IMG/VR virus record: IMGVR_UViG_3300042465_005830
Span: 56,414 to 76,413 of that record
DNA length: 20,000 nucleotides
Origin: an uncultured virus (IMG/VR IMGVR_UViG_3300042465_005830)
Taxonomy: Duplodnaviria; Heunggongvirae; Uroviricota; Caudoviricetes
Reading direction: 5' to 3' (one strand)
This document shows positions 1-16,755 of the stretch, piece after piece. Position numbers and translations under genes: made by a program. Every line of letters starts with the position of its first letter. Position 1 is the stretch's first letter. The notes beneath the pieces were generated by a model. The model did no database searches. It was not told the DNA's origin and saw nothing but the letters and a program-made list of their open reading frames with translations.

Positions 1-2
1 AT

Positions 3-383
3 AATGAGTTCTCAGAAGAAAAACTAATTGAAAAGATTACAGAGTTAAATTTTAGATACCCTCACATCATTCTAGCACAAGCTAAATTAGAATCAGGGCA
101 TTTTAAATCAACTATCTTTCTAGAGAACAATAACATGTTCGGTATGAAAGAAGCTAAGTTAAGAGCTAATTTAGCAAAAGGTACAAACAGAAATCATGCG
201 TATTACGATTCGTGGCAAGAATCAGTTATCGATTATGCTTTGTATTATTCATCTTACTTAAGAAGTATTAAAACTGAAGGAGAGTATTTTGAATACTTAA
301 GACAGAACTATGCTGAGGATCCAACATACGTTCAAAGATTGAAACAGATTATTAAGAAACAAGATTTAAAAAGTAAATTTTAA
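3..383 (+). CDS. GH73/FlgJ-like glucosaminidase (peptidoglycan hydrolase), 5' truncated by window
   Basis: The frame is open from base 3 (NEFSEEKLIEK...HIILAQAKLESGHF...NNNMFGMK) and continues into the 135..383 ORF. AQAxLESG, NxFGMK, YxSWxESVxDY and YAEDPxY are GH73 motifs. Confidence 0.85.
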   Translation, partial: NEFSEEKLIEKITELNFRYPHIILAQAKLESGHFKSTIFLENNNMFGMKEAKLRANLAKGTNRNHAYYDSWQESVIDYALYYSSYLRSIKTEGEYFEYLRQNYAEDPTYVQRLKQIIKKQDLKSKF

Positions 384-384
384 T

Positions 385-618
385 ATGACACTAAAAGAAA
401 AGTTTTTACCTAGAATGTACTGCTTTATGGGTAGCGGGATGTTATCCAACACATACGATAAAGATGTAGCAGAAGATAATGCTATGGAATGCGAAAAAAT
501 AGCAGAAGAATTTGCTGCTGAGTTTGCAATATGGTTAGTAGAAAGAGTGGCAGGAGAGAAAGGACTGGTATTGCAGGATGGTGTATTAGAACGATTCAAA
601 AAAGAAAAAGGATTATGA
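385..618 (+). CDS. hypothetical phage protein
   Basis: 77-aa ORF packed between neighbours; ATGA overlap with the next gene. Confidence 0.7.
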   Translation: MTLKEKFLPRMYCFMGSGMLSNTYDKDVAEDNAMECEKIAEEFAAEFAIWLVERVAGEKGLVLQDGVLERFKKEKGL

Positions 619-977
619 TAGGAGGAGCACAGCCAAAAATATTACTAACTCAAAATGAGCAAGGTACATTTGATCTAGATGAAGCATTTAAGTCCATCTT
701 CGGAAAAGAACTAGAACCAAAATACAAATTAGTTCGAGAAAGAGATCAACTAACTAAAACATCAGTAGGAATAAAATGGTTAGAGTTTGATGAAGAAGGA
801 AGATACAAAGCAGACTTTAAAGACATTGCTGTTGGAAGAAGTTTATTAATGTCTCCATTCGGACCTTCATTCACTTGGCAAACAACACCAGTAACAGAAA
901 TTGTAGAACAAAGAGAAGATTATATTAAATTTAATACAGAAAATTCTGTATACGAATTGTTTGTTTTATCAAAATAA
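615..977 (+). CDS. hypothetical phage protein
   Basis: Probable start is ATG 615 (MIGGAQPK), which overlaps the upstream TGA; the longer 531 start would overlap the previous gene. Confidence 0.75.
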   Translation: MIGGAQPKILLTQNEQGTFDLDEAFKSIFGKELEPKYKLVRERDQLTKTSVGIKWLEFDEEGRYKADFKDIAVGRSLLMSPFGPSFTWQTTPVTEIVEQREDYIKFNTENSVYELFVLSK

Positions 978-991
978 ATTTCGTATATTTA
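961..991 (+). promoter_or_regulatory. Bacteroidota-type -33/-7 promoter P1
   Basis: TTG(961-963)-N20-TATATTTA(984-991), upstream of ATG 1015; same architecture recurs nine times in the window. Confidence 0.75.
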
Positions 992-1014
992 GATATTAAT
1001 TTAAAGTAAAGGTT

Positions 1015-1944
1015 ATGAAAAACATACACGTATTACCAACGGAAAATTCAAGTAGATTATCTTACAACAAAGATGGTGTATTAGAATTACACAGACTTCA
1101 ATGGAGAAAGAATACTCAAAATATCTATATCACTTCTGATGAAGAAATTAAAGAAAGAGAATGGTGTACTGATGGAATTTACCTTATACAAGCAACTCCA
1201 AAATTAGTAGATGCTCAAGGATTGTTTGATAGAAGAGATTGGAGAAAAATCATTCTAACAACAGACCAAGAGTTAATCAAAGATGGTGTACAAGCTATTG
1301 ATGATAAATTCCTAGAATGGTTTGTTAAGAATCAGAGTTGTGAGTTTGTTGAGATTAAACAAGAATTAGGTGTTTGTCTTAATTGTGAATGGAATTATGA
1401 TAGTTGTCCAAATGCTAAAGAATGTTTAAAGGGTAAATACAAAATCATCATTCCTAAAGAAGAACCTAAACTGCAATGTAAAGACTGTAATGACAATTTA
1501 ACAGATTGTACTTGTATTGAAAATACTGTTGATATGAATAAAATAAAAATATACCTAGACGACGTAAGAACACCAGTTGATCCAACTTGGAAAGTAGTTA
1601 GAAACTATGAACAATTTGTAGATCAAATTACTTATTACGGGTTAGAAAACATTGATATAATTTCATTAGATCATGATTTAGGACCTTCAGCAATGGCTGA
1701 ATGGCACTCAAACGTGTATCACAACTACGAATTAAATTATGATAACATTGAAGAGAAAACTGGAATGGATTGCACTAAATGGTTGGTCAATCAGTGGCTT
1801 GATGGATCTCCTGTTGTTGATGTTGTAATACATTCTGCAAATGCAGTTGGTAGTGCAAATATGATGGGTTACATAAACAACTACAGACACATCCATAGAT
1901 TACCTCAGAATTGTGTAAGAGTACAAATTGAACATACAGTATAA
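1015..1944 (+). CDS. phage hypothetical N-terminal domain + Cys-rich linker + C-terminal cyclic-phosphate processing receiver (cREC)-like domain
   Basis: C-terminal motifs IYLDDVRTP, ISLDHDLG, TGMDCTKWL and HSANAVG; in-frame Met at 1534 just before this domain. Confidence 0.75.
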   Translation: MKNIHVLPTENSSRLSYNKDGVLELHRLQWRKNTQNIYITSDEEIKEREWCTDGIYLIQATPKLVDAQGLFDRRDWRKIILTTDQELIKDGVQAIDDKFLEWFVKNQSCEFVEIKQELGVCLNCEWNYDSCPNAKECLKGKYKIIIPKEEPKLQCKDCNDNLTDCTCIENTVDMNKIKIYLDDVRTPVDPTWKVVRNYEQFVDQITYYGLENIDIISLDHDLGPSAMAEWHSNVYHNYELNYDNIEEKTGMDCTKWLVNQWLDGSPVVDVVIHSANAVGSANMMGYINNYRHIHRLPQNCVRVQIEHTV

Positions 1945-1949
1945 AAATT

Positions 1950-2567
1950 ATGGAAGATTTTTTTGAAGATTTAAAAAACCAACCAAGACCAAACTTCTTT
2001 AGAAGAATATATCTGTGGTGGGAACATGATGGTAAATACTTACATAAAGAAATTAAATGGGGTATTCAAAATCTTATTTACTGGTTTCCAATTATATGGA
2101 AAGATAGAAATTGGGACGGGCATTACATTTATGAAGTAATGAAACATAAGTTGAAAGCTCAAGCCAATTATATTGGAAGAAGAGATTTTCATACTCGAGC
2201 ACAGCAAGATGCTCGTAATATGAGAATATGTGTTAAATTAATTCAAGCATGTCAAGATGAGCCTTATTTAATGGAGTATATGGATTACCATAAGGACAGA
2301 GTTTGGTTTACACCTTGTGAGGATCGTGAAGGATCATCTTTATATAATTCAGAAGAGATATGGGAAAATTATGATGAGTTCTTTAAAAAGTATCCTTTAG
2401 TCTATAAGAGAGTGTTAAAAGGTGAAGGACCATTTACTTTAGATGATAGAGATGAATCTGAAATAAAAAGAATTATCGCAATGAATATTGCTCATATAAA
2501 TCACGACAGAGCAAGAAAATTACTGTTTAGAATAATGGAAGAAAATATTGAAGGATGGTGGGATTAA
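1950..2567 (+). CDS. hypothetical phage protein
   Basis: 205-aa Trp-rich ORF (WFPIIWKDRNWD...EGWWD), tightly packed. Confidence 0.75.
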   Translation: MEDFFEDLKNQPRPNFFRRIYLWWEHDGKYLHKEIKWGIQNLIYWFPIIWKDRNWDGHYIYEVMKHKLKAQANYIGRRDFHTRAQQDARNMRICVKLIQACQDEPYLMEYMDYHKDRVWFTPCEDREGSSLYNSEEIWENYDEFFKKYPLVYKRVLKGEGPFTLDDRDESEIKRIIAMNIAHINHDRARKLLFRIMEENIEGWWD

Positions 2568-2701
2568 TTACTATAGGAATATTTGTGCTAATTGGAATAG
2601 TAGCACTATGGGTTAGAGGAATAGATGAAATGCATACAAAACATCCAGACTATAAAGGAGAGGATTTGTTTGGAGAAGATGAACCAAAAAAAGATAAATG
2701 A
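2555..2701 (+). CDS. small membrane-anchored protein (48 aa, not in ORF track)
   Basis: MVGLITIGIFVLIGIVALWVRGIDEMHTKHPDYKGEDLFGEDEPKKDK*; fills the gap exactly and its TGA overlaps ATG 2698. Confidence 0.7.
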   Translation: MVGLITIGIFVLIGIVALWVRGIDEMHTKHPDYKGEDLFGEDEPKKDK

Positions 2702-3174
2702 TAAAATATTTACTTTTACTATTTACAATATTTAGTTTTAGTCAGGAACATATCCTAATAGGTGATTCGCAAACATACCTACTGGCCAGGCATTCAACTG
2801 AAATTAAACAAGTAAAACAGTTATGCCAATCAGGTATAGGTGTTGTTAAATTGAATAGGAAGACACTTAAATACCCTGTATCTCCTGCAGTTAAAAGCGT
2901 ATGTGTATGCATAGGAGTAAACGATGGATACAAGGACAGAGGTATAGATGTTTTATTAAATACTATTAAGAGAACTTTTCCAAATGCTCGTCTTTTTATC
3001 ATTCAAGGCTCATGGGGTTGGGGTACAGTAAGAAGAATGAACCAAAGTACTCTAGACAGGTACTACAAACAATTTCCAGGAACAATAATACATCCGGCAA
3101 TTGGAAAAGGAGATCCACATAAGGGTAAAAAAGTTTATAAAATTATAATGAAAAGTTTGGAAAGCCAAATATAA
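2698..3174 (+). CDS. secreted SGNH/GDSL-like hydrolase
   Basis: Signal-peptide-like N-terminus (MIKYLLLLFTIFSFS); block I IGDSQ, block III IGVND and C-terminal GDPH. Confidence 0.65.
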   Translation: MIKYLLLLFTIFSFSQEHILIGDSQTYLLARHSTEIKQVKQLCQSGIGVVKLNRKTLKYPVSPAVKSVCVCIGVNDGYKDRGIDVLLNTIKRTFPNARLFIIQGSWGWGTVRRMNQSTLDRYYKQFPGTIIHPAIGKGDPHKGKKVYKIIMKSLESQI

Positions 3175-3187
3175 TTTCATATATTTA
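3157..3187 (+). promoter_or_regulatory. Bacteroidota-type promoter P2
   Basis: TTG(3157-3159)-N20-TATATTTA(3180-3187). Confidence 0.75.
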
Positions 3188-3210
3188 GGTATAATTTAAA
3201 AGCAAAAGAT

Positions 3211-3441
3211 ATGATTTGGATTTTATTACTTTACGTTTTACCTCTACTAATATCAATAGTAGGTGTTTATTTTTTAGTTAAAAGAGATGGAGGGGCTGTA
3301 AAAGAATTTTTAGAACCACTACCTTATTTACTCATTCCCTTACTTAATATTGCTGCTGTGGTAGTAGGTATATATTTTCTTATTGAGAAATTTCTAGATG
3401 AAGATGAATCTTGGCAGAACTTTAAAAACAAAAAACTATAA
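3211..3441 (+). CDS. small two-TM membrane protein
   Basis: Two hydrophobic stretches; follows P2; its TAA overlaps the next ATG. Confidence 0.7.
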   Translation: MIWILLLYVLPLLISIVGVYFLVKRDGGAVKEFLEPLPYLLIPLLNIAAVVVGIYFLIEKFLDEDESWQNFKNKKL

Positions 3442-4142
3442 TGAAAATAACATTCATATCAGATACACATACACGGCAAGGACAAATACCATATTCAGAT
3501 TTACCTGGTGGTGATTTACTAATCCATGCTGGTGATATTATGAACTCAGGATACAATAAGAATGATATCTTTGATTTCTTACACTGGTATGATTCAATTC
3601 CAGGCTACGATAAGAAAGTGTTCATAGCAGGTAATCATGATAGAATGTTTCAAAACCATCCTGAAGATGTAAAAGAATGGTTATCTAAATTTCCAAACAT
3701 AATCTATCTGCAAGACGAGGCATACGAGATATATGACTTAGCAACAGATAAGAGCATTAAGATTTACGGATCACCTTGGCAACCAGAATTCTATTCATGG
3801 GCATTTAATTTACAAAGAAACAGTCTTGAATTATCAGGCAAGTGGGAAGCAATTCCTGACAACACAGACATCTTAATCACACACGGCCCGGCTTGGGGTT
3901 CTGTTGATACAGTAGAAGGAAGACCTTGGGACAATTTAGGATGTGAATTATTAGCAGAAAGAATTCAGAGATTTAGACCAAAGATCCATGTCTGTGGACA
4001 TATTCATTCAGGATATGGAGTTGAGACTATTGACGGCATACATTATATAAATGCCTCAGTATTAGACGAAAGATACGAATATACTCAGAAGCCTTGGAAT
4101 ATAGAATGGGATTCTGAAAGTAATATATTATTTGTAAAATAA
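3441..4142 (+). CDS. calcineurin-like metallophosphoesterase
   Basis: SDTH, HAGD, GNHD, THGP and GHIH metal-binding motifs. Confidence 0.93.
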   Translation: MKITFISDTHTRQGQIPYSDLPGGDLLIHAGDIMNSGYNKNDIFDFLHWYDSIPGYDKKVFIAGNHDRMFQNHPEDVKEWLSKFPNIIYLQDEAYEIYDLATDKSIKIYGSPWQPEFYSWAFNLQRNSLELSGKWEAIPDNTDILITHGPAWGSVDTVEGRPWDNLGCELLAERIQRFRPKIHVCGHIHSGYGVETIDGIHYINASVLDERYEYTQKPWNIEWDSESNILFVK

Positions 4143-4145
4143 ATA

Positions 4146-4176
4146 GAAAAAGGCTTGCATATGTGAGTCTTTTTTC
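4146..4176 (+). terminator. putative intrinsic terminator overlapping promoter P3
   Basis: GAAAAAGGCTTGC-ATAT-GTGAGTCTTTTTTC: G-U-rich stem plus T tract immediately after the stop at 4142. Confidence 0.5.
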
Positions 4177-4185
4177 TTATCTTTA
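4155..4185 (+). promoter_or_regulatory. Bacteroidota-type promoter P3
   Basis: TTG(4155-4157)-N20-TATCTTTA(4178-4185). Confidence 0.75.
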
Positions 4186-4210
4186 AGTATTAATTAAAAA
4201 CAAAAAGGTT

Positions 4211-4585
4211 ATGTTTAGAAGAACTAGAATTAAGATTGCTAAGAAATTTAGACAACAATTAACTCAAGAAGACTTAAGAGGGTATAGAAATATACTTAAA
4301 TTGCTTTATCATCCTAAAGCAGAAACACCCCTTAAAGATCCAGAGGTAGCTAAATACTTTATTCAAGTACCTTGCCTTCACCTTGATCTGATCATCGATA
4401 TAGAGAAAGCAGAAATTGTAAATACAAAACAAATCTACCCTCTTAACCTTGATAAGAAAGTAACAGAGCGTGCTGTACAGAGAATCAAAGAAGAAGTATC
4501 AAAACAAAGAGCAGACCTTGAAGATACAATCAGAGGTAAAAAACAAAACATATTAGACAATTTATACGTTAAAGTAAAATGGTAA
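4211..4585 (+). CDS. hypothetical basic protein
   Basis: 124-aa ORF after P3 with AAAAAGGTT-ATG start context. Confidence 0.7.
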   Translation: MFRRTRIKIAKKFRQQLTQEDLRGYRNILKLLYHPKAETPLKDPEVAKYFIQVPCLHLDLIIDIEKAEIVNTKQIYPLNLDKKVTERAVQRIKEEVSKQRADLEDTIRGKKQNILDNLYVKVKW

Positions 4586-4797
4586 AAACATTATTGACAG
4601 TGACGGTGAATGGAAATGAAATTGCATTTATAAAAGATGCAGGACATTATTTCATTCATTGGGGAGAGCAAGGAAAGCCTAGAGCAGTAAAGAAGATAAC
4701 AACTCCATCTGGAAGAAAGCCTTCACAGAACTCAGCACATAAACAATTTATGGAAGCAGTAGAAGCAACTAGAGTATTAAAATTTAGTAGATTATAA
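4579..4797 (+). CDS. hypothetical protein
   Basis: 72-aa ORF overlapping both neighbours. Confidence 0.65.
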   Translation: MVKTLLTVTVNGNEIAFIKDAGHYFIHWGEQGKPRAVKKITTPSGRKPSQNSAHKQFMEAVEATRVLKFSRL

Positions 4798-5015
4798 TGG
4801 CAGCAGAAAGTAACACACCAGTAGATATTGAAATTTGGATTGAGAAAGTAATCAATTCATGTGAGACGCTAGCACATCGTATGAATGCTTATAAATTAGT
4901 AAGACTTTATGTAAAAAGATTACAGGACGAAGGAATGCCTTACTACCAATATACCCACATTAGAGATAAGTTTGAAGGCATCTTATGGCATTTAGAAGAA
5001 AATATAAAAAACTAA
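4797..5015 (+). CDS. hypothetical protein
   Basis: 72-aa ORF with TAATG coupling to the upstream gene. Confidence 0.65.
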   Translation: MAAESNTPVDIEIWIEKVINSCETLAHRMNAYKLVRLYVKRLQDEGMPYYQYTHIRDKFEGILWHLEENIKN

Positions 5016-6674: not shown

Positions 6675-7009
6675 ATTTTATAATAGGTTTTAGCTTCGGA
6701 GTACTGGCACAAGTACTTACATTTGTACAACTACAAGGACAATTCAGATGGGAATGGTTTAAACAACATCCAATGATTATTTCACTAATGGGGGTACCAA
6801 TTTCCTTTCTTTATATTATGTCTGTAAAGTATATGGTATCGCATTTTGGAGGAGAGTTATGGCCTTCAAGACTGATGGGCTTTTCAATAGGAGCAATAGT
6901 ATTTAGTTATATGGCACATTTATGGTTTCAAGAACCATTTACTTTGAAGACACTTATATGTCTTGGATTAGCTTTTGCAATAATGATGGTTCAATTATTT
7001 TGGAAATGA
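6671..7009 (+). CDS. four-TM small membrane protein (SMR/DMT-like size and pattern)
   Basis: 112 aa with four hydrophobic helices and 'WFQEPFTLK' before the last helix, reminiscent of DMT/SMR proteins. Confidence 0.6.
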   Translation: MNFIIGFSFGVLAQVLTFVQLQGQFRWEWFKQHPMIISLMGVPISFLYIMSVKYMVSHFGGELWPSRLMGFSIGAIVFSYMAHLWFQEPFTLKTLICLGLAFAIMMVQLFWK

Positions 7010-7308
7010 AAAAACTAGAAACATGTCACCACTGCGGTGAAGAAAAAGAAAATTGTTATCACGGATTTATAACAATGTGCATTCCTGTTCCTGAAATGGA
7101 AGCAATGATTGATAAATGGGGAAGAAAAGATTGGTGGAATAATTTAGAAAGAGAAGATCTTACTGAAGAAGAAATGAAAGAACTAGATAACCTATCAATG
7201 TACGATCAGATGTTAAGCACTGTTGGAAGAGGAGTTCAATGTGAGGACTGTGGAAAGAAAGAAGCAGAGTTGTACGAAAAATACTATCCAAAAAGTTTGG
7301 AGTCTTAA
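7006..7308 (+). CDS. hypothetical protein with two CxxC motifs (possible Zn-binding)
   Basis: Probable start ATG 7006 (ATGA overlap); CHHC and CEDC motifs. Confidence 0.65.
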   Translation: MKKLETCHHCGEEKENCYHGFITMCIPVPEMEAMIDKWGRKDWWNNLEREDLTEEEMKELDNLSMYDQMLSTVGRGVQCEDCGKKEAELYEKYYPKSLES

Positions 7309-7332: not shown

Positions 7333-8451
7333 ATGAATAATAAATTTACATTCCACGTATTAGGACTTCCTCATACAATCACTAATAGAGAATTTGTAGC
7401 ATGTGCTTATACACAAAAAGCTTGGAAATTCTGTAAGATGATGGGAGAGAGAGGGCATACTATATACCATTACGGACATGAGGAGAGCGACGCTCCATAT
7501 GCGGAAAACGTAACAGTTATTACCAATAAGGTATGGAAAAAGGTATATGGTACTCACGACTATAAATCTAAATTCTTTAAGTACAATGTAGAGGATGAAG
7601 CCTATCAAACCTTCTATAAAAATGCTATAGAGGAAATAGGAAAGAGAAAACAGAAGAATGACTTCATACTTCCATTCTGGGGATCAGGAGTACGTCCAGT
7701 ATGTGATGGACATCCAGATTTAATAACTGTTGAACCAGGAATAGGTTACGCCGGAGGTCATTGGGCCAATTGGAAGGTATTTGAATCTTATGCAATCTAT
7801 CATGCATACTACGGACTGATGGGAGTGAATTATTGCGATATGAAAAACTATGAAGTAGTAATTCCAAACTATTTTGATCTTTCTGATTTCGAATTTAGCG
7901 ATAAAAAAGAAGACTACTTCTTATATTTAGGAAGAGTCTTTGATGGAAAAGGAGTTAATATAGCAATCCAGGTTACTGAACACTTAGGTTATAAATTAAA
8001 GATAGCAGGACAGATTGACGCTGATGGACCATATAAGGATGGAATCTTTCCTCCTCATGTAGAGTTTGTAGGGTATGCTGGTACTGAGAAGAGAAAAAAG
8101 TTAATGAAGAATGCAAAAGGATGCTTCTTACCTTCACAATATGTTGAACCATTTGGAGGAGTGCAAATAGAAAACCTTCTATCAGGAACACCTACCATCA
8201 CTTCAGACTGGGGAGCATTTGCAGAGAATAATATAAACGGAGTAACTGGCTATAGATGTAGAACGTTTGACGATTATTTAAAAGCAACTATAAAAGTCAA
8301 TAACGGAGAAATAGATTATAAGACTTGTAGAGAGTATGGAGAAAAGTTCTCATTAGAGAATGTAGCTCCTATGTATGAGAAATATTTTCAAGATGTTATG
8401 AACGTATATGAAGGAGATGGATGGTATCAAACAGACATTCCAAAAGTATAA
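7333..8451 (+). CDS. GT-B fold glycosyltransferase (GT4-like)
   Basis: YLGRVFDGKG and PSQYVEPFGGVQIENLLSGTPTITSDWGAFAE (E-x7-E nucleotide-sugar motif). Confidence 0.9.
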   Translation: MNNKFTFHVLGLPHTITNREFVACAYTQKAWKFCKMMGERGHTIYHYGHEESDAPYAENVTVITNKVWKKVYGTHDYKSKFFKYNVEDEAYQTFYKNAIEEIGKRKQKNDFILPFWGSGVRPVCDGHPDLITVEPGIGYAGGHWANWKVFESYAIYHAYYGLMGVNYCDMKNYEVVIPNYFDLSDFEFSDKKEDYFLYLGRVFDGKGVNIAIQVTEHLGYKLKIAGQIDADGPYKDGIFPPHVEFVGYAGTEKRKKLMKNAKGCFLPSQYVEPFGGVQIENLLSGTPTITSDWGAFAENNINGVTGYRCRTFDDYLKATIKVNNGEIDYKTCREYGEKFSLENVAPMYEKYFQDVMNVYEGDGWYQTDIPKV

Positions 8452-8463
8452 AACTTTAGTAAG

Positions 8464-8494
8464 TTGGATCATAAAAAGATATTTCTTATATTTA
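8464..8494 (+). promoter_or_regulatory. Bacteroidota-type promoter P5 (queD/queE transcript)
   Basis: TTG(8464-8466)-N20-TATATTTA(8487-8494). Confidence 0.78.
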
Positions 8495-8509
8495 TTAACA
8501 TATAACAAC

Positions 8510-8536
8510 AGTGTCGTAGCACCACTTTAAAAACAC
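8510..8536 (+). ncRNA. class I preQ1 riboswitch-like aptamer (copy 1)
   Basis: AGUG-UCGUAGCAC-CACU-UUAAAAACAC: P1 stem, UCGYAG loop ending in the specificity C, and AAAAAC tail; located in the 5' UTR of the queD/queE transcript. Confidence 0.75.
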
Positions 8537-8541
8537 ACCTT

Positions 8542-8865
8542 ATGGCAACATATTTTAAGAAGCCCTCCATAGAGAGAGCAGAACAATCGGTTATAATGGA
8601 TAGAGTTCTAGAACAAAAAAAGAAAGAACTTTCACCTGAGGATTTCAAAACCTATACAAACTTTACAACTCAGCAAGAACTACTTGAAGAAGCAGCTAGA
8701 AGAAATCTATTAGCAATTCCAGATCCAAAATTACATCAAACAATTTCATTTATTAAATCCGGTATAAGAATACTCGGATACTTCCTACTACCTTTTAATC
8801 TTCTAATAGGAGCCGGAGTATTAATTTTAAGTGAAATAGTTGGTATTTACGAAGAATTAGTTTAA
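8542..8865 (+). CDS. hypothetical protein with C-terminal hydrophobic hairpin
   Basis: 107 aa; C-terminal ISFIKSGIRILGYFLLPFNLLIGAGVLILSEIVGIYEELV; first gene behind aptamer copy 1. Confidence 0.75.
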   Translation: MATYFKKPSIERAEQSVIMDRVLEQKKKELSPEDFKTYTNFTTQQELLEEAARRNLLAIPDPKLHQTISFIKSGIRILGYFLLPFNLLIGAGVLILSEIVGIYEELV

Positions 8866-8874
8866 ATTAGAGTT

Positions 8875-9024
8875 ATGAGACAGGTAAACGATCACGTAAA
8901 AGAAGCTTTAGGAATAAAGCCTAAAAAGAGATTTAAGAAAGACTACACAAAAGCATTTGTATGGATCCTACTAGGAGCTATAACAGTTGCTATATGGACA
9001 ACAATTTACAATTTAATATTTTAA
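8875..9024 (+). CDS. small single-TM protein (49 aa, not in ORF track)
   Basis: MRQVNDHVKEALGIKPKKRFKKDYTKAFVWILLGAITVAIWTTIYNLIF*; fills the gap before queD. Confidence 0.65.
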   Translation: MRQVNDHVKEALGIKPKKRFKKDYTKAFVWILLGAITVAIWTTIYNLIF

Positions 9025-9027
9025 CAA

Positions 9028-9489
9028 ATGAAATTTCAATCAACAAAAGTCTTTGATGGATACTCAACAGTATTTCGTCAATGGAGAGCAGAAGGTACTC
9101 ATTGCAGGTTCCTACACGGTTATGGTATTTCTTTCAAAATTACTTTTGAAGGAGATCTAGACGAAAGAAACTGGGTATGGGACTTTGGAGGAATGAAGAG
9201 AGCTAAAAACACTATTGATGGTATGCCTCCTAAAGCATGGATGGACCATATGTTCGACCATACTTACATCATTGCAAAAGATGATCCATTCTTACCAAAA
9301 GCATTAGAGATGCACAACGAAGAAATAATCCAACTAAGAATAATTCCAGCTACAGGAGCAGAACAATTCGCTAAATTTATCTATGATAAAGTATCTGAAT
9401 TTATACAAATAGAAACAGAAGGTAGAGTAAGAGTAGTGAGTGTAGAATTTAAAGAACATAACAAAAACTCAGCGATATATGGAGAGTAA
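9028..9489 (+). CDS. queD: 6-carboxy-5,6,7,8-tetrahydropterin synthase (PTPS/QueD family)
   Basis: HCRFLHGY, WDFGGMK, FDHT and TGAEQFA (T-fold PTPS motifs); adjacent to queE. Confidence 0.88.
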   Translation: MKFQSTKVFDGYSTVFRQWRAEGTHCRFLHGYGISFKITFEGDLDERNWVWDFGGMKRAKNTIDGMPPKAWMDHMFDHTYIIAKDDPFLPKALEMHNEEIIQLRIIPATGAEQFAKFIYDKVSEFIQIETEGRVRVVSVEFKEHNKNSAIYGE

Positions 9490-9688
9490 AATTAAACTAT
9501 CAGAAGAAGAAGCAGAACAATTATTCGGAGAAATTGATAATCAAGGATTTGGATATTGGGTTGAGCATTATGGATATAAAGGAGAAGAAGATCCGGAATT
9601 AGTTCAACTATGTAAAGAAGCTAGAGCAGCTATGGAAAAGTTAAGAGAGCATATCGATGCTATTTGGGAACATTACGATATCGGATAG
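9479..9688 (+). CDS. hypothetical acidic protein
   Basis: 69-aa ORF overlapping the end of queD. Confidence 0.65.
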   Translation: MESKIKLSEEEAEQLFGEIDNQGFGYWVEHYGYKGEEDPELVQLCKEARAAMEKLREHIDAIWEHYDIG

Positions 9689-9689
9689 T

Positions 9690-9821
9690 ATGGTAGCAAA
9701 ACCTAATTTAACAATGGAAGAGTTCCACAAATACTTACAGGATGTAATAGACTCTAAATTAAATCTAAGACAGAAAGTAGTAGCGGTAGAAATGTATATA
9801 AAACAAATAACAGGTAGATGA
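9690..9821 (+). CDS. hypothetical protein (43 aa, not in ORF track)
   Basis: MVAKPNLTMEEFHKYLQDVIDSKLNLRQKVVAVEMYIKQITGR*; ATGA overlap with queE. Confidence 0.6.
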   Translation: MVAKPNLTMEEFHKYLQDVIDSKLNLRQKVVAVEMYIKQITGR

Positions 9822-10591
9822 AAAGAATAGAAGATTATAACAAAACACTTCCAATTGTAGAGCTTTATACAGCTGTACAATCAGAAGGAAGTAGAGCAGG
9901 CTATCCAACAGTAGTAATCAGAACAACAGGCTGTACTCACAGATGTTGGTTTGGTGAAGGTGGATGGTGTGATTCTTGGTACACAAGTATTCATCCTGAA
10001 AAAGGACATATTAGTTTCCAAGACATTATCAACATGTACGATAAGAATCCTCACATCACAGAGATGATGCTAACAGGAGGATCACCAACAATGCATCCAG
10101 CATTAGTAAATGAATTAACACATTTTGCACATGAAAGAAATATTTTCATTACAATTGAGACCGAAGGAAGTCATTTTCTTGAAACGGATTACCCAATTAA
10201 TCTATTATCAATCTCCCCTAAGTTCAGTAATTCTGTCCCTAAGGTTGGCGTACTCACACCTCAAGGAGACGTTACAGATGAAAGAATGATCAAACAGCAT
10301 AACAAGTTAAGATTAAACTACGATGCAATTTCTAAATCAATCTCGTATCATTCCGATTACCACTTAAAGCCAGTATGGGATGGAGAGGATCAAGAAGCGT
10401 TAGCAGAAATTATGGCTTGTATTAAAATGCTAGACATACCTCAAGACAAAGTATGGTTCATGCCAGCTGGAGATTCAAGAGAAGCTTTATTCAAATCATA
10501 TCCAAAAATGTTTGATTGGGTGAGAGATAATGGTTACAGATTGACTTGGAGACCTCACATCATTGCATTTGAGGACAAAAGAGAAGTGTAG
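9818..10591 (+). CDS. queE: 7-carboxy-7-deazaguanine synthase (radical SAM)
   Basis: ELYTAVQSEG..G.P.V.IRT.GC, CTHRC...WCDS, LTGGSP, IETEG, SISPK and final RPH motifs. Confidence 0.93.
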   Translation: MKRIEDYNKTLPIVELYTAVQSEGSRAGYPTVVIRTTGCTHRCWFGEGGWCDSWYTSIHPEKGHISFQDIINMYDKNPHITEMMLTGGSPTMHPALVNELTHFAHERNIFITIETEGSHFLETDYPINLLSISPKFSNSVPKVGVLTPQGDVTDERMIKQHNKLRLNYDAISKSISYHSDYHLKPVWDGEDQEALAEIMACIKMLDIPQDKVWFMPAGDSREALFKSYPKMFDWVRDNGYRLTWRPHIIAFEDKREV

Positions 10592-10592
10592 G

Positions 10593-10778
10593 ATGAGACC
10601 AGCAACTACAGTAGAAACATTGTACACTCTTCATACACTATGGAGAAAGGGTCAATTACAAACAGCACAGGTAAAGCACTTAATTAAGACTAGCTGCTTC
10701 CTAGAACTAACAAGTATAACAAACGGAGGCATCACAGCACAATCACCAGACGGAAAAATTAAATATTCAATTAAATAA
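10593..10778 (+). CDS. hypothetical protein
   Basis: Probable start ATG 10593 directly after the queE stop. Confidence 0.55.
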   Translation: MRPATTVETLYTLHTLWRKGQLQTAQVKHLIKTSCFLELTSITNGGITAQSPDGKIKYSIK

Positions 10779-10789
10779 AAAATAAAGTT

Positions 10790-11089
10790 ATGACATTAAA
10801 AGATCTAATCGATTTAGCAGGAGACAGAGAATTATCAAAAGCATATCCAAAAGCAGATGGCCTTTACATCTGGGACTATAAGTTACAGTTTAACGGTACT
10901 AAAAATTTTGAATTAGAGTTAGTACTAATACCAAGCGACTCAGGTAAGACAGGATTTAAAGATAAAGTATCTATCGAAGAATTAGTAAACTACGTACTGG
11001 AGTCAACAGATCCAGAAGTATCAGGAGATGAAATTATCTCACAACTACCAATAGTAGACGTGGAAGGAATTACAATTGCAAAGGTATAA
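10790..11089 (+). CDS. hypothetical protein
   Basis: 99-aa ORF with AAAGTT-ATG context. Confidence 0.7.
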   Translation: MTLKDLIDLAGDRELSKAYPKADGLYIWDYKLQFNGTKNFELELVLIPSDSGKTGFKDKVSIEELVNYVLESTDPEVSGDEIISQLPIVDVEGITIAKV

Positions 11090-11090
11090 T

Positions 11091-11675
11091 ATGAAGAAGT
11101 TTTTATTATTACTCTTACTTCCGTTAGTAGGGTTTGGACAGTTAAGAGATAGCGTTTATGTAAAGACAGACATCTACGAAGTGATGTATTCAGAGACACT
11201 AGAACAACCATTGTGGGTAAAGTACCAAGTACTATGTACAGGTGCTGGAGCATCTAGAAAAGGAATGGATTTTTATACAGATAAAACAATTCATACTTCA
11301 GATGCAAAAGATTATGTAAATAATGTTTACGACAAAGGACATTGTGCTCCAGCGGCAGACTTTAACTGCACTAGAGAAATGTTACTTAAAACATTTTCAT
11401 ACTTAAACTGTACCCTACAGAATGAAAGACTGAACAGAGTTCATTGGAGATTATTAGAAGACTATGAAAGACTTCTAGCCTTTTCAGAAGGACCAGTCAA
11501 TGTAGAAATAAAAATAGTATTTGACAAAGTACCTAAAAGAGTACCTGCAGGTGCAGCTATACCAACAGCTTTCTATAAAATTATCAAAACTAAAAATAAA
11601 ACACTTGCTTTCTATTTCTTAAATGAAGCACCAAAGAAAGCAACGTTTGTAGATTATCAAGTAAAACTTAACTAG
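11091..11675 (+). CDS. secreted DNA/RNA non-specific endonuclease (NucA/Serratia beta-beta-alpha-Me family)
   Basis: Signal peptide MKKFLLLLLLPLVGFG (start ATG 11091); PLWVKY, YDKGHCAPAADF, TFSYLNCTLQ...LN..W..LE and IPTAFYKII motifs. Confidence 0.9.
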   Translation: MKKFLLLLLLPLVGFGQLRDSVYVKTDIYEVMYSETLEQPLWVKYQVLCTGAGASRKGMDFYTDKTIHTSDAKDYVNNVYDKGHCAPAADFNCTREMLLKTFSYLNCTLQNERLNRVHWRLLEDYERLLAFSEGPVNVEIKIVFDKVPKRVPAGAAIPTAFYKIIKTKNKTLAFYFLNEAPKKATFVDYQVKLN

Positions 11676-11677
11676 TT

Positions 11678-12073
11678 ATGGCACTAAAAATAGGAAACAA
11701 AGTTTATTTAAGCTGGGATGATATTAATATCTTAGTAGAAGATTTATGTCAGACAATAGCTTCATCAGGAGCAGAAATTAAATCGATAACAGGTATTCAA
11801 AGAGGAGGGTTAATACCAGCAGTAATGATCTCCCACAAGCTCCATATACCTTTCGTTAGTAGAATAAATAAAGATACTCTTGTTGTAGATGACATTTGTG
11901 ATACAGGAGAGACGTTAAAAAAGACTATTGGAATGTATACTGCAACGCTTCATTACAAACCAACAGCAATATTTACCCCAGACTTCTATTCAAAAGAAGT
12001 AGGAACAGAGTGGATTGTTTACCCTTGGGAAAGAAATGATTCAGAAACTATTCAAGATTATTTGAAAAAATAG
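11678..12073 (+). CDS. type I phosphoribosyltransferase, Gpt (xanthine-guanine PRTase)-like
   Basis: YLSWDD, GIQRGGLIPA, PRPP loop VVDDICDTGET and WIVYPWE. Confidence 0.9.
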   Translation: MALKIGNKVYLSWDDINILVEDLCQTIASSGAEIKSITGIQRGGLIPAVMISHKLHIPFVSRINKDTLVVDDICDTGETLKKTIGMYTATLHYKPTAIFTPDFYSKEVGTEWIVYPWERNDSETIQDYLKK

Positions 12074-12104
12074 TTGCAGGATAGAATAAAAAATGTTATA
12101 TTAA
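12074..12104 (+). promoter_or_regulatory. Bacteroidota-type promoter P6 (folE transcript)
   Basis: TTG(12074-12076)-N20-TATATTAA(12097-12104). Confidence 0.75.
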
Positions 12105-12111
12105 ATAAAAC

Positions 12112-12138
12112 GGAGTCGTAGAACCTCCATAAAAACAA
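12112..12138 (+). ncRNA. class I preQ1 riboswitch-like aptamer (copy 2)
   Basis: GGAG-UCGUAGAAC-CUCC-AUAAAAACAA, ending 6 nt before the folE ATG; closely parallels the T. tengcongensis aptamer as recalled (CUGGG-UCGCAGUAAC-CCCAG-UUAACAAAACAAG). Confidence 0.82.
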
Positions 12139-12144
12139 TCTTAT

Positions 12145-12855
12145 ATGTCAAATAAAAAATTTATCGACGGTACAGAATTAGTACAAGCCGGATTCGCTAA
12201 TGGAATCTCAACACAATTAGCAAAAAAACAATTAATAGATGGTCCAGAAGCAAGACTAACTGAAGAAGAAAAGCAAGCTATTATCGAGAATGCTGCAGTA
12301 GCTTTTGGGCAATTCCTTTCAGCTTTAGGGTGTGATTGGAGTAATGATCCAAATTCATCTGATACTCCTAAGAGAGTTGCAAAAGCATATGTAAATGATT
12401 TATGGGCAGGTCGATTTGAACCAATGACTAAGATCACAGCATTCCCTTCTGATGGGTATGACGGAATAGTATTCGAAGGAAACATTCCAATTACTTCAAT
12501 GTGCTCTCATCATCACCAAACAATCACAGGAAGAGTTCATATCGGATATGTTCCTTCAGCAGATGGAAAAGTAGTTGGACTTTCTAAATTGAATAGAATT
12601 GTAGAGCAATTTGCTCGTAGAGGAGCTATCCAAGAACAATTAACAGTTGCAATTCATAATGCAGTAGATAAGATCTGTGAAGGTAATCTAGGAGTAGCAG
12701 TTATGATTGAAGCAGGACATAATTGTGTAAGCTGTAGAGGTATTAAGCATCAAGGTGCTTCAATGAAGACAGCAAAATTAACAGGATGTTTCTTAGACGA
12801 AGCATCAGCAAGAGCAGAATTTTACGAATTTGTAAAAGGATATAGTTGTAAATAA
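12145..12855 (+). CDS. folE: GTP cyclohydrolase I
   Basis: TPKRVAK, SMCSHH, GLSKLNRIV, QEQLT and HNCVSCRG motifs. Confidence 0.95.
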   Translation: MSNKKFIDGTELVQAGFANGISTQLAKKQLIDGPEARLTEEEKQAIIENAAVAFGQFLSALGCDWSNDPNSSDTPKRVAKAYVNDLWAGRFEPMTKITAFPSDGYDGIVFEGNIPITSMCSHHHQTITGRVHIGYVPSADGKVVGLSKLNRIVEQFARRGAIQEQLTVAIHNAVDKICEGNLGVAVMIEAGHNCVSCRGIKHQGASMKTAKLTGCFLDEASARAEFYEFVKGYSCK

Positions 12856-13117: not shown

Positions 13118-13630
13118 ATGATTACAGATCCAAAAGTACCTTTTATTGACGAAGTAGAAGAATTTAACGCCGTAATGGGCAAACCTAATAACTATGAACC
13201 AACTATCCCCGAAAGAAAAGAATGGGAGTTTGTATACAATTTCATCCTTGAGGAATTGGAAGAATATAGAGCAGCTTGCGAAGCAGGAGACATCGTTGAG
13301 GTTCTGGATGCTTTGTGCGATATTACTTATGTTGCCACTGGGAACGGTACTATGTTACATGGCCTTAAGGATAAGATATGGCCAGCATATCAAGAAGTTC
13401 AAGCTTCAAATCTATCAAAAGCTTGCCAAACAGAAGAAGACGCTAAAGCAACTGTCATTCAGAGATCGAGTGAGCAAGGTGAGGAGTGTCATTACGAAAA
13501 AGTTGGAGAGTATTACGTTGTTTATAGAACAAGAGATAGAAAAGTAATGAAGAATGTAAACTACTTCCGACCAGATCTTTCTCAGTTTTTTACTCAAGAG
13601 CAGTTAAGTAAATTTAATAGAAGTAAATAA
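13118..13630 (+). CDS. MazG-like all-alpha NTP pyrophosphohydrolase (PRA-PH/DR2231-like)
   Basis: ILEELEEY...EVLDALCDITYV..G, EVQASNLSK and KVMK...Y..PDL motifs. Confidence 0.88.
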   Translation: MITDPKVPFIDEVEEFNAVMGKPNNYEPTIPERKEWEFVYNFILEELEEYRAACEAGDIVEVLDALCDITYVATGNGTMLHGLKDKIWPAYQEVQASNLSKACQTEEDAKATVIQRSSEQGEECHYEKVGEYYVVYRTRDRKVMKNVNYFRPDLSQFFTQEQLSKFNRSK

Positions 13631-13833
13631 TGCAAGCAGCACTAGACCATTTAGAAAAGCATAAAGTGTTTATTGATACTTTAGGTATAGATATGATTCC
13701 TTTATCAGAGGCTTATAAAGCAGTTGAGAAATCTATTGATAGTCAGCTGGCAGAAGTTATGGAAACATTACAGACACAGCTAGGAGGGTTAGTAGAAGAT
13801 TTAGAAGATATAACACCAGAAAATAATGATTAA
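13630..13833 (+). CDS. hypothetical acidic protein
   Basis: 67-aa ORF coupled to both neighbours. Confidence 0.65.
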   Translation: MQAALDHLEKHKVFIDTLGIDMIPLSEAYKAVEKSIDSQLAEVMETLQTQLGGLVEDLEDITPENND

Positions 13834-14620
13834 GATAGCACACGAATCACCGAAGAGTATATTTAAAGAAGTACAAAAGCATACTGATTACGACTATGCA
13901 CTTGTTCACTTATTTGAAGAAGATCCAGAATACTTAAAACAGTTTCAAGAAGCTAAAGAAGCAGGTAGAGAAATTATTTTAGATAATTCTATATTTGAAT
14001 TAGAAGAAGCTTTTGATGCAGAGAAGTTTGCAGGATGGGTATTAGAATTAAAGCCAGATTGGTATATAGTTCCAGATGCTTTAGAAGATGCAAAGAAGAC
14101 TGTTAAGCAGATGACTGAATGGAATAACAAATATAAAAATCTTCCAGGAAAGAAAATAGGAGTTGTTCAAGGAAAGACTTATAGTCAAATTAAGACTTGT
14201 TATGAGTATATGGATAAGATTGCAAATGTAGATATGATTGCAATTTCATTCGACTATTCGTACTATACTAATACTATTTCTCATCCTAACAAGTATGTTA
14301 GCTGGATGTTAGGAAGGGTTAAGCTACTAGGAGATCTGTTGAGAGACGGTGTAATAAACGAAGAGAAGAAGCATCACTTATTAGGATGTGGATTACCTCA
14401 AGAGTTTTCTTTTTACTCAGATTATAAATGGATCTATTCTTTAGATACTTCTAATCCAGTTGTACATGGTATAAAAGGAATTGAGTATAGAGCAGACGGA
14501 TTATGGTCAAAAGAGTCTCAAAAGTTATTTGAACTAATCAATTACGTACCAGAAGATACGAATATGATTCTTCAGAACATTCACAAATTCAGATGGTTTG
14601 CAAATGGACGCAAAGTATAA
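13826..14620 (+). CDS. TGT-fold 7-deazaguanine enzyme, DpdA3-like
   Basis: IILDNSIFE (variant of the TGT/DpdA DSG motif), IVPD, IGVVQG, HHLLG and SLDTS match the order of TGT barrel motifs; located within a que cluster. Confidence 0.72.
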   Translation: MIKIAHESPKSIFKEVQKHTDYDYALVHLFEEDPEYLKQFQEAKEAGREIILDNSIFELEEAFDAEKFAGWVLELKPDWYIVPDALEDAKKTVKQMTEWNNKYKNLPGKKIGVVQGKTYSQIKTCYEYMDKIANVDMIAISFDYSYYTNTISHPNKYVSWMLGRVKLLGDLLRDGVINEEKKHHLLGCGLPQEFSFYSDYKWIYSLDTSNPVVHGIKGIEYRADGLWSKESQKLFELINYVPEDTNMILQNIHKFRWFANGRKV

Positions 14621-14783
14621 AGTAGGAGAGATGGTTATTATTAATCTCGATAATGAGATTATAGATGCTGAAGTATTTGGAATAGTAAATAACACTTCAG
14701 GAAAACCTTCGTACAGTTTAAGAGTAAAAGGTAATTTTATCTTTGTAGATGAAAGTAGAATAATAAGTATATCACATGAGTAG
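14604..14783 (+). CDS. small SH3/KOW-like hypothetical protein
   Basis: MDAKYKVGEMV...AEV...YSLRV...FVDE beta-rich pattern; ATG 14604. Confidence 0.55.
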   Translation: MDAKYKVGEMVIINLDNEIIDAEVFGIVNNTSGKPSYSLRVKGNFIFVDESRIISISHE

Positions 14784-15303
14784 GCCTTGGATAGCATTCT
14801 TTAGTCAAACAGGATCAGAGATCGTAGAAGTGTCAAAGCTTTTAGGAAGATGGCCTGATATGATAGTAACAAACGAAAGACCAGAACATCTTAGAAAGAT
14901 TCATCCGGCTTTAGAATCAAAGCATTTAGTCTTTGTAGAGAATAAACCTACAGAAGAAGAATTGTCAATGATACTTGGCCAATATGGAAATCCTTTAGTA
15001 ACTCTTCATGGATGGTTGAGAATTATGCCTCCATATATCTGTAATCGATTTGAAATCTATAACGGACATCCAGGACTTATAACTGAATATCCAGAACTAA
15101 AAGGAAAAGATCCTCAGCAAAAAGCTTTCGACCTAGGATTAGAATCCTCAGGATGTGTTATTCATAGAGTAACAGAAGGAGTTGATGAAGGAGAGATACT
15201 CCGTAGTAGAAAAGTTTCTATAAAAGGGTTGGAGATTGGAGAATTATTTCATATATTACATAGTATATCAGTAAGTCTTTGGGTAGACTTCTTAAAAAAT
15301 TAG
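14776..15303 (+). CDS. PurN-like formyltransferase (DpdN-like, predicted preQ1 N-formyltransferase)
   Basis: FFSQTGSE, LHGWLRIM, NGHPGL and SGCVIHRVTEGVDEG parallel PurN (SGxGSN, LAGFMRIL, NIHPSLL, GxTVHxVxxxxDxG). Confidence 0.85.
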   Translation: MSRPWIAFFSQTGSEIVEVSKLLGRWPDMIVTNERPEHLRKIHPALESKHLVFVENKPTEEELSMILGQYGNPLVTLHGWLRIMPPYICNRFEIYNGHPGLITEYPELKGKDPQQKAFDLGLESSGCVIHRVTEGVDEGEILRSRKVSIKGLEIGELFHILHSISVSLWVDFLKN

Positions 15304-15305
15304 TT

Positions 15306-15830
15306 ATGAAAAGAATAGCATTAGTAGGAGCATCATCAGTAGGAAAGACTACTGTATACGAATTATTAAAAGATAGACTTCCAGAGTTTAATTTTATAAA
15401 CGAATCAACAAGAACGGTTGGTAAATATGGATTTCCTATTAACGAAGATGGAACTTCTGAAACACAGCTTGCTATTTCTTCTTTTCATTTAGAGGCTTTA
15501 CTACAGCCAGGAGATGTAATACTTGACAGATGTTATTTAGACCTAGTAGTATATTCTACTTATATGGAAAACATTTCTGATAGTACATACAATTATATCT
15601 TAGATACTTGGATGAGAGTTAAGGATCAATATACACATTTTATTTATTTCCCTATTGAATTTGCTTCTGTAGATGATGGAGTAAGAAGTGTTAACGAAGG
15701 ATGGAGAGATGCAATCGATAAGCAATTTGAGAATAACTTAAAAGCAATTAAAGCATTAGGAGGAGATTACTTAACAGTATCAGGAAGTCCTAAACAAAGA
15801 GTTGAACAAATATTAAACTATATAAAATAA
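15306..15830 (+). CDS. P-loop nucleoside/nucleotide kinase-like protein (NadR/AAA_28-like)
   Basis: Start ATG 15306; Walker A GASSVGKT, DRCYLD and DDGVR motifs. Confidence 0.8.
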   Translation: MKRIALVGASSVGKTTVYELLKDRLPEFNFINESTRTVGKYGFPINEDGTSETQLAISSFHLEALLQPGDVILDRCYLDLVVYSTYMENISDSTYNYILDTWMRVKDQYTHFIYFPIEFASVDDGVRSVNEGWRDAIDKQFENNLKAIKALGGDYLTVSGSPKQRVEQILNYIK

Positions 15831-15831
15831 C

Positions 15832-16755
15832 ATGGCAGAATTAAATCAAGCAGAAGTAGTAAAGATTGCCGGAAAGCATCTTGGTAAAGTAGGAGGAGAA
15901 GGTTATAAGGATACTTATGATCCAGAATTATTAGTAGAGATTCCTCGTTACTTAAACAGAGAAGCATACGGAATAGACGATAACAACTTACCATTTGTTG
16001 GAGGAGATGTTTGGAATGCATACGAAGTATCAGCAATCACTACAAAAGGACTTCCAGTAGTAGGGATGTTGAAAATTTACTATCCAGCAGATTCAAAACT
16101 TCACGTAGAGTCTAAATCTATCAAATTGTATTTGAATTCATTCAATATGACTCAAATGGGAGATACAGCAGCAGAGTGTATTGCAATTTTAAAAGATAGA
16201 GTAAAGAGAGATTTATCTGAGAAGTTACAAACAAATGTAGAAGTAGAGATGTTTACTTCAGACTTTGGACCAGCATATGCATTTAAAGGATATGCACAAT
16301 TGGATCAAATAGCTAATCTAGATAATATTGAATTTACTTCTTATCATTCAGATGCTACACAATTGGAAACAGAAGAAGTAGATGATGATTTCGAAATTGG
16401 AGTAATCAAAATACAATCAAATCTTTTAAGATCAAATTGTAGAGTAACAAATCAACCAGACTGGGGTGATGTATTTATTCACATTAAACCTAAAGCAGGA
16501 GTTGTTCCTAATTTAGAATCATTAGCAAAATATATTGTAAGTCACAGACAAGTAAGTCACTTCCACGAAGAGATTTGTGAAATGGTTTACATGCACTTAA
16601 GAGAAGCTTACAATCCAGAAGAATTAATGGTAGCTTGTCTTTACACTCGTAGAGGAGGATTAGATATTAATCCAGTAAGAGCTTCACATAAGGAATTAAT
16701 CCCAAGCTTCTTTGCAGATGTAAAATGCAGAATGGAAAAAACATTACGCCAATAA
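15832..16755 (+). CDS. queF: NADPH-dependent preQ0 reductase, bimodular (E. coli YqcD-type)
   Basis: DVWNAYEVS, QueF motif ESKSIKLYLNSF, catalytic LRSNCRVTNQPDWG, FHEEICE and YTRRGGLDINP. Confidence 0.95.
   Translation: MAELNQAEVVKIAGKHLGKVGGEGYKDTYDPELLVEIPRYLNREAYGIDDNNLPFVGGDVWNAYEVSAITTKGLPVVGMLKIYYPADSKLHVESKSIKLYLNSFNMTQMGDTAAECIAILKDRVKRDLSEKLQTNVEVEMFTSDFGPAYAFKGYAQLDQIANLDNIEFTSYHSDATQLETEEVDDDFEIGVIKIQSNLLRSNCRVTNQPDWGDVFIHIKPKAGVVPNLESLAKYIVSHRQVSHFHEEICEMVYMHLREAYNPEELMVACLYTRRGGLDINPVRASHKELIPSFFADVKCRMEKTLRQ

Follow-up and report, generated by a model that had tools for sequence, protein, structure and literature searches.

A preQ1-I-like leader motif in two copies, probably a miniature translational riboswitch, in the DNA-modification gene cluster of a Flavobacterium-type phage

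The window, as we call the whole stretch of 20,000 nucleotides (nt) of DNA analyzed here, comes from a 76-kb virus record of IMG/VR (IMGVR_UViG_3300042465_005830) and belongs to a phage of the Flavobacterium type. On its + strand it carries folE, the gene for GTP cyclohydrolase I (12145..12855; Pfam PF01227, E = 8.6e-45), whose homologue in the cultured immuto phages is annotated FolE. The subject of this work is a short motif in the leader of this gene, which reads GGAG (12112-12115), UCGUAGAAC (12116-12124), CUCC (12125-12128), AUAAAAAC (12129-12136) and AAUCUUAU (12137-12144), with the ATG at 12145. Upstream of it lies a promoter-like site (12074..12102, + strand) made of TTGCAG, 17 nt and TATATT, and 9 nt separate the end of its -10-like box from the stem. 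A first-pass annotation of this DNA had described precisely this succession of stem, loop, stem and tail between the promoter-like site and the folE ATG, and the description is confirmed on the letters. It had set the element at 12112-12147; the element is indeed there, but that range takes in the start codon, and the aptamer-like part is 12112-12139, about 28 nt long.

The P1 hairpin of the folE copy (12112..12128, + strand) pairs GGAG (12112-12115) with CUCC (12125-12128), in the minimum-energy fold as well as by covariation. The loop UCGUAGAAC (12116-12124, + strand) contains U12116 and G12121 as well as C12124, the putative specificity base. The A-rich tail behind it (12129..12139, + strand) consists of AUAAAAA (L3), C12136 and AAU, where C12136, at a distance of 8 nt from the folE AUG, is the putative pseudoknot partner of G12121.

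The first-pass annotation overlooked a twin at 8510..8541 (+ strand), composed of AGUG, UCGUAGCAC, CACU, UUAAAAAC and ACACCUU, with an AUG directly after at 8542. This second copy has its own promoter-like site (8464..8492, + strand; TTGGAT, 17 nt, TATATT) and heads an operon of a small open reading frame (ORF), queD and queE. The first gene behind it is the conserved small ORF of 107 amino acids (aa) (8542..8865, + strand), followed by queD (9028-9489, + strand; Pfam PTPS, E = 6e-15), a 69-aa ORF between queD and queE (+ strand, within 9028..10591), and queE (9818-10591, + strand; Pfam Radical_SAM, E = 2.5e-7); the immuto annotation likewise names the homologues of these two genes QueD and QueE. 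Only folE leaders, 11 in number, went into our covariance model (R1), which nevertheless located the second copy, at 8506-8540 with 43.5 bits and E = 2e-7. Over the whole 76-kb record R1 gave two strong matches only, the next best having E values of 0.58 and 0.66. The two copies differ in two stem pairs, both compensatory, and in the second copy U8517-A8537 and G8516-C8538 could lengthen P2.

The description in the first-pass annotation can be cast as a loose descriptor (4 Watson-Crick base pairs (bp), a 9-12 nt loop of the form U...C, then up to 5 nt before AAAAC), for which 0.50 matches are expected per 20-kb window on both strands, and two or more appeared in 9 of 100 Markov resamples. The window has exactly two matches, 12112 and 8510, both on the + strand, behind a TATATT box and directly before deazaguanine-pathway genes. 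A stricter family consensus had no match in 500 resamples. By itself the descriptor match in the folE leader is not significant, and it is the comparative data that settle the question.

The folE loci compared were the best 80 of 599 IMG/VR FolE matches. Of these 80 related loci, 46 have the motif in the folE leader; it occurs there in 23 distinct versions, and its stems read GGAG/CUCC, GGUG/CACC, UGAG/CUCA, UGUG/CACA and AGUG/CACU. Over 25 distinct rows, 99.0% of the P1 cells were paired and the observed score was reached by none of 500 shuffles; over 53 distinct rows the paired fraction was 99.5%, and two of the four pairs change on both sides. The outer pair (pair 1) is AU in 30 rows, GC in 12 and UA in 10, and pair 3 is UA in 40 and AU in 13. 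When the partner strand was slid along, pairing fell to 30-61%. The first-pass annotation had proposed aligning related folE leaders for covariation as a check, and its expectation of a conserved, covarying element is borne out by these numbers. Invariant in the 53 distinct copies are the second and the top G-C pairs of P1, U6, A10, G11, A13 and C14 (alignment numbering), and likewise the A run, A29, C30 and A31. The run before C30 never has fewer than 4 A, and L3 measures 6-9 nt. The pair G11-C30 is present in 50 of the 53 rows as aligned, and the other three do carry the C, which the alignment misplaces. Two copies are present in 25 of 50 related records, one in 17 and none in 8.

Our pattern scan of viral contigs gave at least 140 stretches. 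Among the 80 fetched, 70 had the full tail, and in 67 of these the first ORF could be read; without exception these 67 stand before pathway genes or ORFs heading queD-queE. The first ORF is FolE in 29 copies, a member of the small ORF family heading queD-queE in 30, a 197-aa ORF heading queD-queE in four, QueD in two and QueE in two; no motif was found ahead of the QueC gene. The association with the preQ0/preQ1 pathway claimed in the first-pass annotation holds in these loci, and the lineage is one that swaps G for formyl-preQ1, as in immuto phage DNA (PMC10516641). Besides, a QueF match is found in 25 of 26 motif-bearing records, the exception being a fragment of 30% completeness that breaks off close to the motif, and QueF is absent from seven of eight motif-less relatives. 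This co-occurrence fits preQ1 better than preQ0 as the candidate ligand, with the clade structure confounding the comparison.

We then compare the motif with the solved class I aptamers, in which the specificity cytidine pairs with preQ1 and further contacts are made by the Watson-Crick face of the A before the pseudoknot C, by the U after P1 and by the G at the top of P1 (PMC8752633). All of these contact bases are present and invariant in the 53 distinct phage copies (contacts as given in PMC8752633). Their equivalents in the folE copy are G12115, U12116, A12123-C12124 and A12135, and G12121 is able to pair with C12136. In the same way as in preQ1-I, a G-C pair closes the top of the hairpin, the loop begins with U and ends with the specificity C, the A-rich 3' tail ends in A-C with a C that can pair with the loop G, and the site stands directly before queuosine-precursor genes, where control would be translational rather than by termination. 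An A before the specificity C is the hallmark of the single-ligand type II, and in type I two preQ1 molecules are bound (PMC8752633). Subtype labels differ between sources: A-before-C is type II in PMC8752633, and the T. tengcongensis aptamer is type 1 in PMC8222354.

A natural counterpart with a similar core was found in Bacillota. This aptamer (L274), with UCGCAGCCCAC as its loop and UUAACAAAACAAGG as its tail, is located before a Vut_1 (YhhQ-type) transporter gene; its loop start UCGCAG and tail AAAACAAGG resemble UCGUAG and AAAAACAAU of the phage motif. Validated by its context, it scores 29.7 bits with the Rfam preQ1-I model (RF00522), under the gathering cut-off of 39 bits. Because this aptamer also scores below the cut-off, a sub-cut-off Rfam score is not decisive for this subtype. 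Within the 173-kb relative G001, the best RF00522 match is the folE-leader copy itself (21.8 bits, E = 0.0034), a variant made of GGUG, UUCGAAGCAC and CACC.

The differences from preQ1-I are also clear. P1 has 4 bp in the phage motif and 5 bp in the Tte and Bsu aptamers; the phage loop has 9 nt, against 11-13 nt in the Bacillota aptamers examined, with an L3 of 6-9 nt; and P2 comprises one invariant G-C and one variable pair, compared to 4 bp in Tte and Bsu (PMC10639078). The 3' strand of the phage motif has no Shine-Dalgarno (SD) sequence, its Rfam score is far under the cut-off, and it would serve phage DNA modification where preQ1-I serves tRNA modification. The preQ1-II (RF01054) and preQ1-III (RF02680) classes presumably share ligand and pathway with the phage motif, and gave no match in a cmscan of all 4227 Rfam families. 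Their aptamers are larger and differently folded. Taken on its bases, the phage motif probably works like a preQ1-I aptamer, as a diverged member of that class, and is not a member by the curated Rfam test. The first-pass call of a class I preQ1 aptamer stands for the contact-base signature, and does not for the canonical architecture, given the 4-bp P1, the weak P2 and the missing Rfam match.

The position of the motif in the leader points to translation as the step that would be controlled. Of 95 distinct instances, 94 have a TATATT-type hexamer ahead of the stem, at a distance of 0-20 nt; our sigma-70 scan omitted the 12074 site, whose first hexamer matches at 3 of 6 positions only. The distance from C30 to the AUG is 5-13 nt, again in 94 of 95 distinct instances and most often 6-8 nt, and the tails behind C30 are variable and A/U-rich. 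On the + strand no terminator-like site was detected in 8400-12400, a range that includes the two copies as well as the beginnings of the ORFs downstream. With no terminator-like site in this range and a tight spacing between C30 and the AUG, the expression platform would therefore be translational. Neither window copy has an SD-like sequence between C30 and the AUG, unlike the Tte kind of platform, where the 3' strand of P2 overlaps such a sequence. Messenger RNAs of Bacteroidetes are described as lacking SD sequences, initiation being tuned by mRNA structure and upstream bases (PMC6847099). Four metatranscriptome contigs (X1-X4) cover the region, two long ones bridging 12112; contigs from RNA libraries cannot show starts, strand or level, and DNA or read-through may be present in them. 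One metatranscriptome contig of 540 nt, from a 93%-identical relative, ends at 8500, that is 8 nt past TATATT and 10 nt before the stem. This end is a weak hint, compatible with a transcription start.

Putting these observations together, we propose that the two copies of about 28 nt are OFF switches, a miniature, phage-specific, preQ1-I-like translational riboswitch, and we give this reading a probability of about 0.75. Transcription would start a few bases past the conserved TATATT box, and the leader RNA would fold the 4-bp P1, the step for which covariation speaks. Accumulated preQ1, or possibly its precursor preQ0, would then pair with C12124, framed by U12116, G12115-C12125 and A12135; we infer this pocket because the invariant bases are identical to those of the solved preQ1-I aptamers. 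G12121 would pair with C12136 and the A-tract would dock along P1, giving a compact H-type pseudoknot. Such a fold, ending 5-13 nt before the AUG, would lock up the unstructured A-rich leader that SD-ignoring Bacteroidota ribosomes presumably need, and synthesis of FolE, QueD and QueE should fall on ligand binding. The folE copy and the queD-queE copy would act in this way on the first three steps of 7-deazaguanine synthesis, and the phage could match its GTP-consuming base supply to the insertion of the base into DNA by DpdA.

Several results weigh against this proposal. The lone hairpin of the folE copy is weak (-3.9 kcal/mol, z = -0.98), a fold energy that is not significant, and P1, of 4 bp only, is thermodynamically marginal. 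In a cmscan against all 4227 Rfam families the whole window has no family at gathering, and the model check that the first-pass annotation had suggested for the folE leader turned out negative: RF00522 matches neither 12112 nor 8510, be it with the gathering cut-off or with E<=10. The only RF00522 match in the record, at window position 7000-7024 with 10.3 bits, was rejected as noise, as were the four families (Ref84, Clostridium-PBP, snR87 and MIR824) that a 151-nt Rfam scan returned at E<=10. In the relative G001 a decoy at G001:119428 scores 19.8 bits with RF00522, not far from the 21.8 bits that the true site reaches; its 6-bp hairpin and A-rich tail have no matching structure, and the genes that follow are unrelated. 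R1 in turn has no match at E<=10 to eight Bacillota RF00522 sites, of which seven score 42.7-55 bits and have stems of 5-6 bp and loops of 11-13 nt, so that there is no reciprocal link at the level of the models. The weak point of the likeness to preQ1-I is P2, barely supported beyond one G-C pair. We tried 24 registers, with shuffle counts uncorrected for registers; N9-N33 pairs in 22 of 31 combinations against 17.0 expected, a value reached by 38 of 2000 shuffles, and only this register and weakly N9-N34 stand above the shuffles. N9-N33 is paired in 38 of 53 rows, as UA, UG, GC, CG or GU; G11-C30 never varies and is thus uninformative on P2 covariation, and in the folE copy the second P2 position is U.U. 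All motif copies come from one phage lineage, which makes the counts above counts of cells and not of independent events. The record of locus L050 (G039, a 73-kb relative) has QueF and has the motif nowhere, its folE leader included. The immuto phage shares about 89% identity over folE and its neighbours, the gene order and an identical folE-leader aptamer with the window; it differs in having neither the second motif copy nor the small ORF ahead of queD. Finally, the contigs that bridge the promoter may represent DNA or read-through.

The alternative that survives best, an unlikely one in our judgement, is a genuine riboswitch for another ligand, such as preQ0, the formyl-preQ1 base, 7-carboxy-7-deazaguanine or guanine, or for two stacked ligands as in type I. 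The end product of the cultured relative is formyl-preQ1, and dPreQ1 is reported as not detected in its DNA (PMC10516641); besides, a loop shorter than the canonical one and a reduced P2 may make for a different pocket, and type I aptamers do accommodate two preQ1 (PMC8752633). Against another ligand speak the invariance of the specificity C and of the other alpha-site bases and the fact that the motif tracks the preQ1-making QueF (25 of 26 records with the motif, one of eight without), and against two ligands the A before the specificity C, the type II hallmark (PMC8752633).

Slightly less probable still is a conserved leader hairpin acting in protein binding, mRNA stability or translation with no sensing of a small molecule, its likeness to preQ1-I being coincidental. 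It would agree with the lack of an Rfam family at threshold, the short and weak stem, the marginal P2 covariation and the loose descriptor expected 0.5 times per window by chance. However, a protein operator is not expected to fix bases exactly at the preQ1 contact positions of solved aptamers, nor to be restricted, in the loci fetched, to folE, queD and queE leaders of QueF-encoding phages, and no candidate regulator gene is linked to the motif in the loci read.

A DNA-level element (an operator palindrome or a part of the promoter) or a chance similarity inherited with the promoter appears very improbable: the motif does lie 0-20 nt downstream of a conserved -10-like box, and P1 has no G.U pair at all, so that P1 alone cannot tell RNA from DNA, but the stem changes and stays complementary, the asymmetric loop and one-sided A-tail are fixed, the motif stands on the coding strand directly before the AUG in 67 of 67 loci among those fetched, its distance to the -10 box varies by 0-20 nt while that to the AUG is tight, and the homing-endonuclease insertion described below left promoter, motif and folE as a unit.

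Within the preQ1-I-like riboswitch reading, a more specific version seems to us only a little better than an even bet. It would make the motif a distinct phage-only mini-subtype of preQ1-I, with P1 at 4 bp, P2 vestigial and a total length of about 28 nt, which would work by folding away the A-rich leader in an SD-free manner, would be the first riboswitch known for hypermodification of DNA and not of tRNA, and would coordinate folE with queD and queE through two differently tuned copies.

Outside this phage lineage the motif was not recovered, within the limits of each search. In cellular genomes the pattern scan gave at least 121 stretches. Among the 80 loci fetched, 79 were chance-like, mostly with GC-rich or coding flanks and R1 scores of at most 23.5 bits, and the sole true copy (L120) is on a phage-like contig binned into the metagenome-assembled genome of an uncultured bacterium. 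In this contig a GIY-YIG/NUMOD3 homing-endonuclease gene (L120:1709-2440) is inserted between the phosphoribosyltransferase gene and the promoter-plus-motif of folE, and the insertion leaves promoter, motif and folE together as one unit. R1 had no match in five named genomes. In 151 sampled Flavobacteriaceae genomes it gave no credible copy, with 46 of several thousand first-look candidates scored per genome, so that absence is not shown; one match of 30.6 bits was rejected, lying antisense inside an ORF. RF00522 had 0 matches in 151 sampled Bacteroidia genomes, with a small share of the first-look candidates scored, and absence is not shown here either. Among cultured phages, BLAST with the 44- and 46-nt motifs returned four immuto records only, and in them the folE copy only. 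In the Cellulophaga phages phi13:1 and phiST the space ahead of folE is no more than about 15 nt long and holds no motif, and an R1 match of 17 bits in the Chryseobacterium phage MA9V-3 was rejected as junk.

The second copy has some features of its own. In GUG-type copies (window 8511-8522) the loop can pair, in the predicted fold, into an alternative 4-bp hairpin GUGU-CGUA-GCAC that competes with P1, and this is not possible in the GAG-type folE copy; the alternative hairpin could be a ligand-free state. The small ORF family (67-107 aa) is always the first gene behind queD-type copies. In ten aligned homologues its N-terminus is variable and a C-terminal block is invariant (P.PK.HQ..SF.KS..R ... 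L..E..G..EELV); no Pfam or PHROG family was found for it, and a hydrophobic stretch suggests a small membrane protein. In some relatives (L263:139-732, L258, L093, L293, L313, L316, L340) a 197-aa ORF replaces it behind the motif. For this ORF the only match is a weak, CarS-like one (PF01864, E = 7.6e-4, below cut-off), and BLAST showed no similarity between it and the small ORF.

The motif copies are embedded in a modification gene cluster whose order, from Pfam and the immuto annotation, is glycosyltransferase, 107-aa ORF, QueD, 69-aa ORF, QueE, endonuclease and phosphoribosyltransferase, continuing with FolE, a DUF4494 protein, a MazG-like protein, a DpdA homologue, a DpdN-like formyltransferase, a kinase-like protein, QueF and PolA. 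All on the + strand, the DpdA homologue is at 13826-14620 (Pfam, immuto annotation), the DpdN-like formyltransferase at 14776-15303 (Pfam, immuto annotation and the fdPreQ1/DpdN paper, PMC10516641), and QueF at 15832-16755 (Pfam, immuto annotation); the kinase-like AAA_28 protein (15279-15830, + strand) sits between the last two. At 11076-12073, 13118-13630 and 15279-15830, genes for an endonuclease (non-specific DNA/RNA), a small phosphoribosyltransferase, a MazG-like NTP pyrophosphohydrolase and the AAA_28 kinase-like protein are interleaved with the deazaguanine genes; they may serve nucleotide-level handling of the modified base, or host-DNA recycling. In several relatives a 4Fe-4S ferredoxin gene lies 3' of queE (L264:1901-2212, L262:1630-1938), and its product may serve QueE, a radical-SAM enzyme, as a dedicated electron donor. 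At roughly the same place the window has a 99-aa ORF without a Pfam match (10790-11089).

The first-pass annotation had also stated that it knew of no characterised riboswitch controlling a phage DNA-modification pathway, and our full-text literature searching, with subscription papers and supplements outside its scope, agrees: we found no description of a riboswitch in a phage deazaguanine cluster, and nothing on DpdA together with a riboswitch. The words riboswitch and regulat- have 0 occurrences in the available text of the immuto/DpdN paper (PMC10516641). An expected riboswitch before the que operon of Streptococcus phage Dp-1 was not borne out, bases 1-5000 having no Rfam preQ1 match.

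In culture the system is represented by a phage-host pair, immuto phages and Flavobacterium sp. LMO8, and the folE aptamer of these phages is the same as in the window. To our knowledge class I, with its minimum of 34 nt, is the smallest natural aptamer. If preQ1 is bound, the phage motif would set the lower size limit of natural aptamers, and would offer a sensor part of very small size that functions in Bacteroidota. It would also be a natural case of translation under riboswitch control in a phylum that does without Shine-Dalgarno pairing. Above all, it would mean that phages regulate the supply line of an anti-restriction DNA modification with a metabolite-sensing RNA.

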